Origin: a virus | Taxonomy: Duplodnaviria; Heunggongvirae; Uroviricota; Caudoviricetes | Strand: one strand, 5' to 3' | DNA: 64,000 nucleotides | Virus record (IMG/VR): IMGVR_UViG_3300031133_000383 | Location: 346,635 to 410,634 of that record | Shown here: positions 28,223 through 35,430 of the stretch, piece by piece | Position numbering within the stretch: the first letter of the stretch is position 1 | How the letters are laid out: each line of letters opens with the position of its first letter | Program-made: the position numbers and the translations under genes | Notes under the pieces: model-generated | The model's database searches: none | Told to the model about the DNA's origin: nothing | The model's input: the letters and a program-made list of their open reading frames with translations, nothing else

Positions 28223-28505
28223 TATTTTTTACTTTAAAGCCATCTTCGGGTGGCTTTTTTGATCAAGTTAAATTGATTTCCATTATTGTTAAAAACTCGT
28301 TTAAATCAAAAATATTTCGACAGTCATTTGTATTTAAAAAAGCTACAACATCTTCTTTTCCTTATTTTTCTAAATTTACCTTAATATTTTCTCTATCTTA
28401 CTCTCTTTAGCTTTTTTATCAATAGCTTTACAATATGACATTTTTTATTTTTCTTTAAATAGTTGTTGACTGTAAACCATCATTTTGATAATATAGTCAC
28501 ATCAA

Positions 28506-28589
28506 GCCCGAGTGGTGGAATGGTAGACGCGGTGGATTCAAAATCCTCTGTCGAAAGACGTGCCGGTTCGAGTCCGGCTTCGGGCACCA
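28506..28589 (+). tRNA. tRNA-Leu(CAA)
   Basis: Cloverleaf, loop TT-CAA-AA, long variable arm, CCA. Confidence 0.95.
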
Positions 28590-28597
28590 AATTTATA

Positions 28598-28750
28598 TTT
28601 TAACTGTTGAAAAGAGATGCTGTGCTAATACCAGTGTGGCAGTAGAGGTGGTGACCTATTACTTTATTGCATGATGTTAGCAGGGTTATGAAAGTCACTA
28701 TAATAGTTAAGGGTTGGTAGTAATGCATTTTCAATCTCTCTATGCATTAT
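28598..28750 (+). ncRNA. Double-pseudoknot RNA family A, copy 1
   Basis: Homologous to 28770-28930 with compensatory stems. Confidence 0.75.
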
Positions 28751-28769
28751 GACTTTTATTGTTGGTAAG

Positions 28770-28930
28770 GTTTCAATTGTCGAAAAGAGATGCAGTGGTA
28801 ACACCCAAGCGGTGATAGAATTGGTGACCTATTATTTTATCACACGATGTTGCCATTAGTCAGGAAAGTCACTATAACAATTGAGACAGCAGTAGATGTG
28901 TTGTGTGCTTTAAATCTCTTTGTACACTGC
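28770..28930 (+). ncRNA. Double-pseudoknot RNA family A, copy 2
   Basis: Homologous to 28598-28750. Confidence 0.75.
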
Positions 28931-28976
28931 ATGCTGGACTACTGATTTGTAACGCAGGTTTTTATCCCTGCATTCT

Positions 28977-29065
28977 ATTTTGTTTAGGCTTGTAGCTCAG
29001 ATGGTAGAGCGGAGGGCAGAAACCCTCGCGTCGGAGATTCGATTTCTTCCTCGCCTAGACAAAAT
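28977..29065 (+). ncRNA. tRNA-like RNA with 6-nt anticodon loop (CAGAAA), extended acceptor stem, no CCA
   Basis: TAGCTCAGATGGTAGAGC D-arm, GAGGG/CCCTC stem, TTCGATT T-loop, TTTTGTTTAGGC/GCCTAGACAAAA closing stem. Confidence 0.7.
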
Positions 29066-29220
29066 TTTTTATTTTTAATCAATCAAAGATGACAGCTATT
29101 TGAACTCTGGATTGGTGTAATGATTTTTTTCAACAACCTTGAGCTTGATGTTTTCAAAAAAGAAATCATGGTTAAAAATCTTGACTTCTTTAGCATCTGA
29201 TGCTAATATAACCACACAAA

Positions 29221-29304
29221 GCCCGAGTGGTGAAATGGTAGACGCGGGGGACTTAAAATCCCCTTCCTTACGGAGTGCCGGTTCGAGTCCGGCCTCGGGC
29301 ACCA
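29221..29304 (+). tRNA. tRNA-Leu(TAA)
   Basis: Cloverleaf, loop CT-TAA-AA, long variable arm, CCA. Confidence 0.95.
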
Positions 29305-29312
29305 AATTTTAT

Positions 29313-29386
29313 TTCTCGTTAGTTTAACGGTAGAACAGCGGCCTCTAAAACCGTGTATGCGGGTTCGAATCCCGCACGAGGAACCA
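29313..29386 (+). tRNA. Amber tRNA (anticodon CTA)
   Basis: TTCTCGT/ACGAGGA acceptor, loop CT-CTA-AA (CTA at 29345-29347), GCGGG-TTCGAAT-CCCGC, ACCA. Confidence 0.85.
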
Positions 29387-29393
29387 GTATCAT

Positions 29394-29470
29394 GGGACTT
29401 TAGCTCAGTTGGTTAGAGCGTCCGACTCATAATCGGCAGGTCGTAGGTTCAAGTCCTACAAGTCCCACCA
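29394..29470 (+). tRNA. tRNA-CAT (probably Ile2, lysidine type)
   Basis: Cloverleaf, CT-CAT-AA, Ile-like D-arm, CCA. Confidence 0.9.
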
Positions 29471-29547
29471 AATTATCAAAAATTGTCTATATATTGTATA
29501 TTTCCTTTAATCAGGACAATTTGTTGCTACATCCTCTGAGGTGCCAA

Positions 29548-35124: not shown

Positions 35125-35254
35125 GGAGCCTGTCAGCGAACAGGTTGGGTGGTAGCGGTGTCGCGGGCAAGCCATCACAGTGAAAGTTACATTGATGCAG
35201 GGGTTGCATTGATTAAAACGATTGGGCGAATCGGTTTCTTTCACAACTTAATTT
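35125..35254 (+). ncRNA. Structured RNA family B, copy 1
   Basis: GGAGCC...TGATTAAAACG...AACTTAATTT; covarying hairpins vs other copies. Confidence 0.8.
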
Positions 35255-35298
35255 GATAATAGGTAGTAGTTGTTGTACTGTCTAGTTTGAAGAGATAT

Positions 35299-35428
35299 GG
35301 AGCCTGTCTACAAGCAGGTTGGGTGGTAGCGGTGTCGCGGGCGAACCATCGACGTGAAAGATTCATTGATGCGGGGAAGGCATTGATTAAAACGGTTAGG
35401 TGGACCGGCTTCTTTCACAACCTAATTT
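35299..35428 (+). ncRNA. Structured RNA family B, copy 2
   Basis: Tandem homolog ending 2 nt before tRNA-Cys. Confidence 0.8.
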
Positions 35429-35430
35429 AT

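Follow-up and report, generated by a model that had tools for sequence, protein, structure and literature searches.

Organization of the locus downstream of tRNA-Leu(CAA)

The window analysed here, a stretch of 64,000 nucleotides, comprises bases 346635-410634 of an IMG/VR phage record of 437,043 bp, which is 98%-complete and has a G+C content of ∼33%. A promoter scan located a sigma-70-like promoter (TTGACT-17(TG)-TAATAT) at 28466..28494 on the + strand of the window, ending ∼11 nt before a tRNA-Leu(CAA) gene (28506..28589, + strand). This is the first gene of the unit, encodes its CCA and was identified by ARAGORN and by the Rfam tRNA model (47.8 bits). Beyond an AU-rich linker of 9 nt lie two related units of ∼150-160 nt on the same strand, A1 (28599..28749) and A2 (28772..28929), which are separated by 22 nt and spaced ∼173 nt apart. 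The first-pass annotation of this DNA had reported a tandem pair of RNAs directly after the tRNA, and the pair is present as described. Both copies were delimited by alignment, by pair counts and by R1, a covariance model built from A1 and A2 only (184 bits for A1 and 192.9 bits for A2).

A site scan of the + strand between tRNA-Leu(CAA) and A1 detected no promoter or terminator. One + strand promoter-like match was found within A1 (28677-28704), overlapping the conserved J2/1 block described below. A weak terminator-like hairpin of 5 bp with a T-rich tail, 3' of A2 (28954..28971, + strand), is suggestive, chance alone predicting one such site in the stretch. It is followed by a tRNA-like gene, here termed the tRNA mimic (28986..29057, + strand), which scored 40.4 bits with the Rfam tRNA model and was not called by ARAGORN; its aberrant anticodon loop is shortened, it has no CCA and a T-run follows directly. 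The mimic and its T-run may represent the end of the A1/A2 transcription unit. A second promoter, identical in form to the first (29181-29209), precedes tRNA-Leu(UAA), an amber-suppressor tRNA(CUA) and tRNA-Met. The promoter and tRNA-Leu module is duplicated (28466-28589 for CAA and 29181-29304 for UAA), and the block formed by A1, A2 and the mimic lies between the duplicates.

The next ORF after A2 starts at 29494, beyond the tRNA mimic, the second promoter and the three tRNAs. The region is variable and rich in ORFans; the neighbouring ORFs are themselves ORFans, among which no RNA-binding annotation was found, and searches with the neighbouring proteins returned no relatives. Elsewhere, the phage genome encodes RNA ligases of the Rnl1 and Rnl2 types, and a PNKP-type gene is present in relatives of the phage. 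A full-length DnaK/Hsp70 is also encoded (G000:C1:182807-184708, G000 being the 437-kb genome); tblastn matched it best (73%) to a record labelled Pseudomonas phage Y6, and the DnaK genes of uncultured phages of 480-735 kb share 50-54% identity with it. The suppressor tRNA(CUA), at 29313-29386, is located 400 nt downstream of A1/A2. The longest open frame in the genome has 796 codons, and recoding of TAG or TGA was rejected as an explanation of the short ORFs, as frames barely lengthen when either is read as sense. The genome in which the suppressor tRNA resides follows the standard code.

Two diverged copies share four helices

A1 and A2 are paralogs on the + strand with 83% column identity over 166 alignment columns. 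Each can be folded into four helices: P1 (9 bp), P2 (8 bp) and P3 (9 bp), which are nested, and a 3' hairpin, P4 (8 bp). In A1 these are formed by 28599-28607/28703-28711 (P1), 28623-28630/28675-28682 (P2), 28639-28647/28662-28670 (P3) and 28721-28728/28742-28749 (P4), and in A2 by 28772-28780/28877-28885, 28796-28803/28848-28855, 28812-28820/28835-28843 and 28901-28908/28922-28929 respectively, all on the + strand. The internal loop that separates P1 from P2 is referred to here as the hub.

When both pseudoknots described below were included, giving six helices and 47 pairs, 98.9% of the cells in the two copies were paired, the single broken cell lying in P4 of A2. Nine pairs carry two-sided changes (two in P1, one in P2, three in P3 and three in P4), and in six more a one-sided change retains pairing through G-U. 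Shifting the 3' partners by one to three columns reduced pairing to 31-51%, with 0-2 double changes, and the observed values were attained in 1/500 column shuffles, these statistics being drawn from two sequences and a single duplication. The G-U pairs in P1, P2, P3, P4 and PK1 are compatible with the + strand only, and therefore the + strand alone can adopt this fold. The helices thus lie where the first-pass annotation had placed them, and are kept by compensatory change, as it had proposed. Nested-fold z-scores were weak (-2.0 and -0.9), and minimum-free-energy folds pair part of the hub differently.

A protein-coding reading of A1/A2 was rejected, as the substitutions between the copies exhibit no three-base periodicity and the overlapping ORFs extend to only 41-46 codons. 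The region is non-coding, A1 and A2 are genuine structured RNAs, and their stems are well supported.

Invariant segments of the hub and hairpin loops are mutually complementary

Differences between the copies are unevenly distributed. They affect 16/23 linker and end columns (70%), 25/68 stem columns (37%), 15/49 other unpaired columns and 0/26 of the columns assigned to pseudoknots (pseudoknot against stem, Fisher p = 1.3e-4). The invariant blocks, GAAAAGAGAUGC, UGGUGACCUAUUA, GAAAGUCACUAUA and AAUCUCU, contain exactly the strands that can pair with one another. In A1, the P3 loop UGGUGAC (28649-28655) is complementary to GUCACUA (28694-28700) in J2/1, the strand joining P2 to P1 (PK1, -10.5 kcal/mol), and AGAGAU (28613-28618) in J1/2, the strand joining P1 to P2, is complementary to AUCUCU (28734-28739) in the P4 loop (PK2, -6.8 kcal/mol). 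The corresponding + strand segments of A2 are 28822-28828 with 28868-28874 (PK1, -9.2 kcal/mol) and 28786-28791 with 28914-28919 (PK2, -8.2 kcal/mol). PK1 would comprise 7 bp including one G-U, and PK2 6 bp, extendable to 8 in A2. This complementarity is exactly as it had been described in the earlier annotation, and two pseudoknots are a plausible consequence.

When all pairs of unpaired segments were compared, PK1 and PK2 ranked first and second in duplex stability in both copies. In shuffled sequences, a best duplex equal to PK1 of A1 was unusual (p = 0.008), as was the joint occurrence of both knots when composition was preserved (p = 0.0012-0.0056, even with any partner allowed; the joint any-partner value for A2 was p = 0.0012). 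The strands of both knots are identical in A1 and A2, and because pseudoknot bases never vary between the copies, covariation is absent from PK1 and PK2. The pseudoknots predicted from these complementarities are plausible and statistically unusual, though unproven. If both form, the order of strands from 5' to 3' is P1, PK2, P2, P3, PK1, P3', P2', PK1', P1', P4, PK2', P4'.

The RNA is confined to one phage lineage in the databases searched

Rfam 15 (4227 models) was searched for covariance-model matches at or near the gathering score. Between 28400 and 29100, only tRNAs were matched at E <= 10, with nothing over 28598-28930, and no match over A1/A2 was obtained from 19500 to 47500 at E <= 1. 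The first-pass annotation had not recognized the family, and Rfam does not contain it even at the most permissive threshold used. Within its own 437-kb genome, R1 detected A1 and A2 only. R1 rests on two sequences, and therefore distant homologs could escape it.

Five motif scans of viral contigs, metagenomes and GTDB genomes were performed. Every match from the viral-contig scans (with the PK1 pair, the PK2 pair and the three blocks) was rejected by R1, the GTDB genome scan yielded one chance match that R1 also rejected, and the three-block metagenome scan recovered the same phage only, on a contig (L115) with 99.6-99.8% identity. Protein similarity places the phage near the jumbo phages XacN1 and Xoo-sp13 of Xanthomonas and RsoM2USA of Ralstonia (43-46% identity), together with many uncultured relatives. 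R1 found nothing credible in the whole records of RsoM2USA, XacN1 and Xoo-sp13; a 17.6-bit match in Xoo-sp13 was discarded since all the motifs are absent from it. Ten IMG/VR relatives, identified through a 778-aa phage protein and including complete genomes of 452 and 481 kb with 42 and 56 tRNAs, gave no match, nor did an unfiltered search of their tRNA regions. In four contigs that share synteny by way of the upstream 461-aa neighbour nothing credible was found either, and a recurrent 19-20-bit match inside a tnpB ORF was rejected as coding sequence. The RNA was thus missing from 13 records of related jumbo phages as well as from the four syntenic contigs.

In two of the relatives (G009 and G010), inspection by eye of the sequence 3' of tRNA-Leu(CAA) revealed no such RNA; small ORFs follow the tRNA at two sites with long flanks, and the third site is a gap of 100 nt between two tRNA-Leu genes. 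One syntenic contig, L149, retains the tRNA-Leu(UAA), suppressor and tRNA-Met trio at 92% identity, with ORFs in place of the A module. At that position L149 has only the UAA-type promoter and tRNA-Leu module. As the RNA is missing from relatives, including L149, the A module represents a lineage-specific gain or a loss elsewhere, and since related phages manage without it, the RNA is dispensable for the lineage.

Full-text literature searches returned nothing on the A1/A2 RNA, and the main text of a phage RNA survey comprising 10,006 candidates describes no tRNA-trailer class of this kind (PMC10690425). A second multi-copy RNA, named family B in the first-pass annotation (core GGGUGG-AGCGGUGUCGCGGGC), is present at 35125-35430 of the window and has no Rfam match at E <= 1. 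A homolog of family B lies in L149 (11700-11838), directly upstream of tRNA-Pro; family B is therefore conserved beyond this genome, unlike the family formed by A1 and A2.

A strain variant carries a TnpB insertion upstream of the unit

The metagenome contig L115 (3.9 kb) is derived from a variant strain of this phage, in which neither A1 nor A2 has changed and eight substitutions occur in the flanking 2.4 kb. One difference in the variant, G-to-A at 29361, falls inside the suppressor tRNA(CUA). L115 also contains an insertion of 1186 bp (L115:1483-2668) that encodes a 365-aa TnpB-like protein and corresponds to 28401/28402 of the window, just upstream of the tRNA-Leu(CAA) promoter and ∼200 nt before A1. 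The two strains are polymorphic for the insertion of this IS200/IS605-type element. The tRNA region of L149 contains a TnpB fragment (Pfam OrfB_IS605, Cas12f1-like_TNB) whose DNA is near-identical to that of the L115 tnpB over the ∼97 nt compared. A TnpB guide RNA (omega/reRNA) would overlap the 3' end of tnpB and extend to the right end of the element. The possibility that A1/A2 is such an RNA was rejected: the reference strain has no tnpB here, the element in L115 ends at 28401/28402, and ∼200 nt, including the promoter and the tRNA, separate that end from A1.

Comparison with known structured RNAs

Small stable RNAs have been known in the tRNA clusters of phages since rnaC and rnaD of T4. 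In the T4 cluster, tRNA-Arg has rnaD (species 2, 119 nt) and rnaC (species 1, 139 nt) in tandem only a few bases downstream, and both are annotated as small stable RNAs; A1 and A2 occupy the same kind of position, in tandem and directly 3' of a tRNA. Both phages also encode an Rnl1-type RNA ligase. The similarity does not extend to sequence or structure, as R1 with filters off scored <= 7.9 bits in the T4 cluster and the folds differ: rnaC ends in a tRNA-like T arm, whereas A1 and A2 have no T arm. Nor do rnaC and rnaD look like paralogs of each other. The T4 arrangement may be regarded as the nearest precedent, by analogy of arrangement only and not by homology. To our knowledge, the function of rnaC and rnaD is still unexplained.

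GOLLD and ROOL are structured RNAs of phages and prophages, 500-800 nt in length, often near tRNA genes and of unknown function. They resemble A1/A2 in being phage-borne and tRNA-associated, but are far longer, and their Rfam models do not match A1/A2. The antitoxin RNAs of type III toxin–antitoxin systems (ToxI) likewise consist of a pseudoknotted RNA repeated directly in tandem, with a leaky terminator after the array. ToxI-type units are ∼34-40 nt and near-identical, whereas A1 and A2 are long, spaced ∼173 nt apart and diverged to 83% identity. No ToxN/AbiQ-like gene follows A2, the neighbouring proteins gave no toxin-type match in PADLOC, Pfam or NCBIfam, and an antitoxin array was rejected. 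A T-box-like pairing of the UGGUGAC loop with tRNA 3' ends was also rejected, as only five bases are complementary and these lie partly within the acceptor stem.

Alternative explanations

The two copies could act in cis, as a trailer that protects or times the maturation of tRNA-Leu(CAA) by blocking exonucleases or providing a nuclease entry site, and have no function once released. Their location between the tRNA and the end of the unit, the AU-rich linkers and the weakness of the terminator after A2, which a stable 3' structure could assist, are consistent with such a role. A mere block, however, would need neither 26 invariant knot bases nor invariant loop bases while the stems drift by 37%; two diverged copies have been retained, and the other tRNA-Leu unit (29181-29470) and the related phages manage without A1/A2. 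A trailer function is considered unlikely.

From the compact double pseudoknot, the first-pass annotation had proposed a ribozyme or a nuclease-resistant RNA, a step that the present results do not support. In a ribozyme reading, each unit would be a new self-cleaving RNA that cuts itself from the tRNA-Leu precursor, in the manner of HDV-like theta ribozymes near phage tRNAs; such ribozymes have reportedly been described in gut phages by Kienbeck and colleagues in 2024. Like theta and the small self-cleavers (twister, pistol, hatchet and hammerhead), A1/A2 are compact pseudoknotted RNAs, and these ribozymes can also adjoin phage tRNAs. The two-pseudoknot fold with ∼45 invariant bases, unpaired or knot-forming, the tandem position directly after the tRNA, and the presence of Rnl1/Rnl2-type ligases in the phage and a PNKP-type gene in its relatives, which could handle ribozyme-type ends, all agree with cleavage. 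Comparison with the known classes did not bear this out. HDV-like and theta ribozymes require the order P1, P2, P3, P3', P1', P4, P4', P2', which differs from that of A1/A2; both knots of twister use a single terminal loop, whereas those of A1/A2 would use the P3 loop and that of a separate 3' hairpin; and the hammerhead core is absent. No Rfam ribozyme model, including the HDV-type, twister and twister-sister models, matched at E <= 10. Moreover, at 150-160 nt the units exceed small self-cleavers two- to threefold in size, no cleavage site can be named, and most newly discovered pseudoknotted RNAs are not ribozymes. A self-cleaving function is therefore judged improbable. The more specific proposal, that A1/A2 represents a new ribozyme class in a megaphage tRNA operon whose 5'-OH and cyclic-phosphate products are healed, sealed or circularized by the Rnl1, Rnl2-like and PNKP-type enzymes, is thought very improbable.

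There is even less probability that A1/A2 is a tandem ligand-binding aptamer of the riboswitch kind or an antisense regulator. Tandem aptamers exist, as in glycine riboswitches, and THF riboswitches have a pseudoknot between a loop and a joining strand. Against this, no Rfam riboswitch model matches, and the unit contains neither an expression platform nor a regulated ORF, the ORF at 29494 lying behind the hairpin, the tRNA mimic, a promoter and three tRNAs. An antisense RNA directed against the phage itself was rejected, as no target complementary to the invariant blocks was found elsewhere in the 437-kb genome.

A non-functional origin, as a duplicated spacer, a DNA-level repeat or a decayed gene folding by chance, would fit the absence from all relatives searched, the variable, ORFan-rich surroundings and the weak fold z-scores, but is the least probable reading in view of the nine two-sided compensatory changes and 98.9% pairing, the confinement of invariance to mutually complementary blocks and the strand-specific G-U pairs.

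A trans-acting RNA as the favoured explanation

The duplicates are best explained as an old pair of paralogs, copies of a structured non-coding RNA that is restricted to one lineage and has no entry in the catalogues. As to what this RNA does, we tentatively favour a stable, folded, trans-acting RNA that is released by tRNA processing and binds a partner; this may be correct, but falls short of an even chance. It starts from what is evident in the alignment and at the locus: the copies are paralogous, are encoded on the + strand and have four helices, their hub is both invariant and complementary to the hairpin loops, and the unit is arranged as described above. The trans-acting reading fits best because the stems drift while the complementary loops are frozen, because two copies are kept and because no target, ORF or expression platform was found. 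The identity of A1 and A2 in a second strain, despite eight differences in the flanks, argues in its favour; against it, the evidence consists of two sequences from one duplication, to which an identical strain variant adds nothing.

In such a model, the promoter at 28466-28494 would drive + strand transcription, with A1/A2 presumably co-transcribed as the trailer of tRNA-Leu(CAA). Cleavage of the AU-rich linkers by host tRNA-processing nucleases, downstream of the CCA, in the spacer that separates A1 from A2 and upstream of the tRNA mimic, would free the two RNAs. Each RNA would fold as a stack of P1, P2 and P3 with P4 as its 3' hairpin and the P1/P2 internal loop as the hub. Pairing of the 3' strand of the hub with the P3 loop (PK1) would fold P3 back along P2, which would need a bend at the conserved 8/4-nt internal loop between P2 and P3; the near-equal lengths of P2 and P3 are consistent with this geometry. 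Pairing of the 5' strand of the hub with the P4 loop (PK2) would likewise cause P4 to run along P1. Together, the two contacts would produce a compact bundle around an invariant core, and such a shape would suit binding or catalysis. The hub could be the working surface and may bind a partner, probably a protein from host or phage that is connected with tRNAs and RNA repair. Such an RNA would function in trans, either within a stable RNP or as a decoy, and would serve neither as a message nor as an antisense RNA nor as a regulator in cis.

Significance

The A1/A2 family is a well-supported candidate from one phage lineage only, and not an established class. Its fold is new, and its genomic habit has a precedent in T4. 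A phage of 437 kb thus maintains, in a T4-like genomic habit, a further RNA that is unrelated to those of T4 and folded more intricately, with a tRNA mimic, an amber suppressor tRNA and RNA-repair enzymes as its neighbours. The finding is of relevance to RNA and phage specialists, tempered by evidence from a single lineage. If a partner or an activity were found, a new pseudoknot fold would be added, and the role of such RNAs in infection could be revealed, for example in countering tRNA-directed host defences or in steering tRNA processing.
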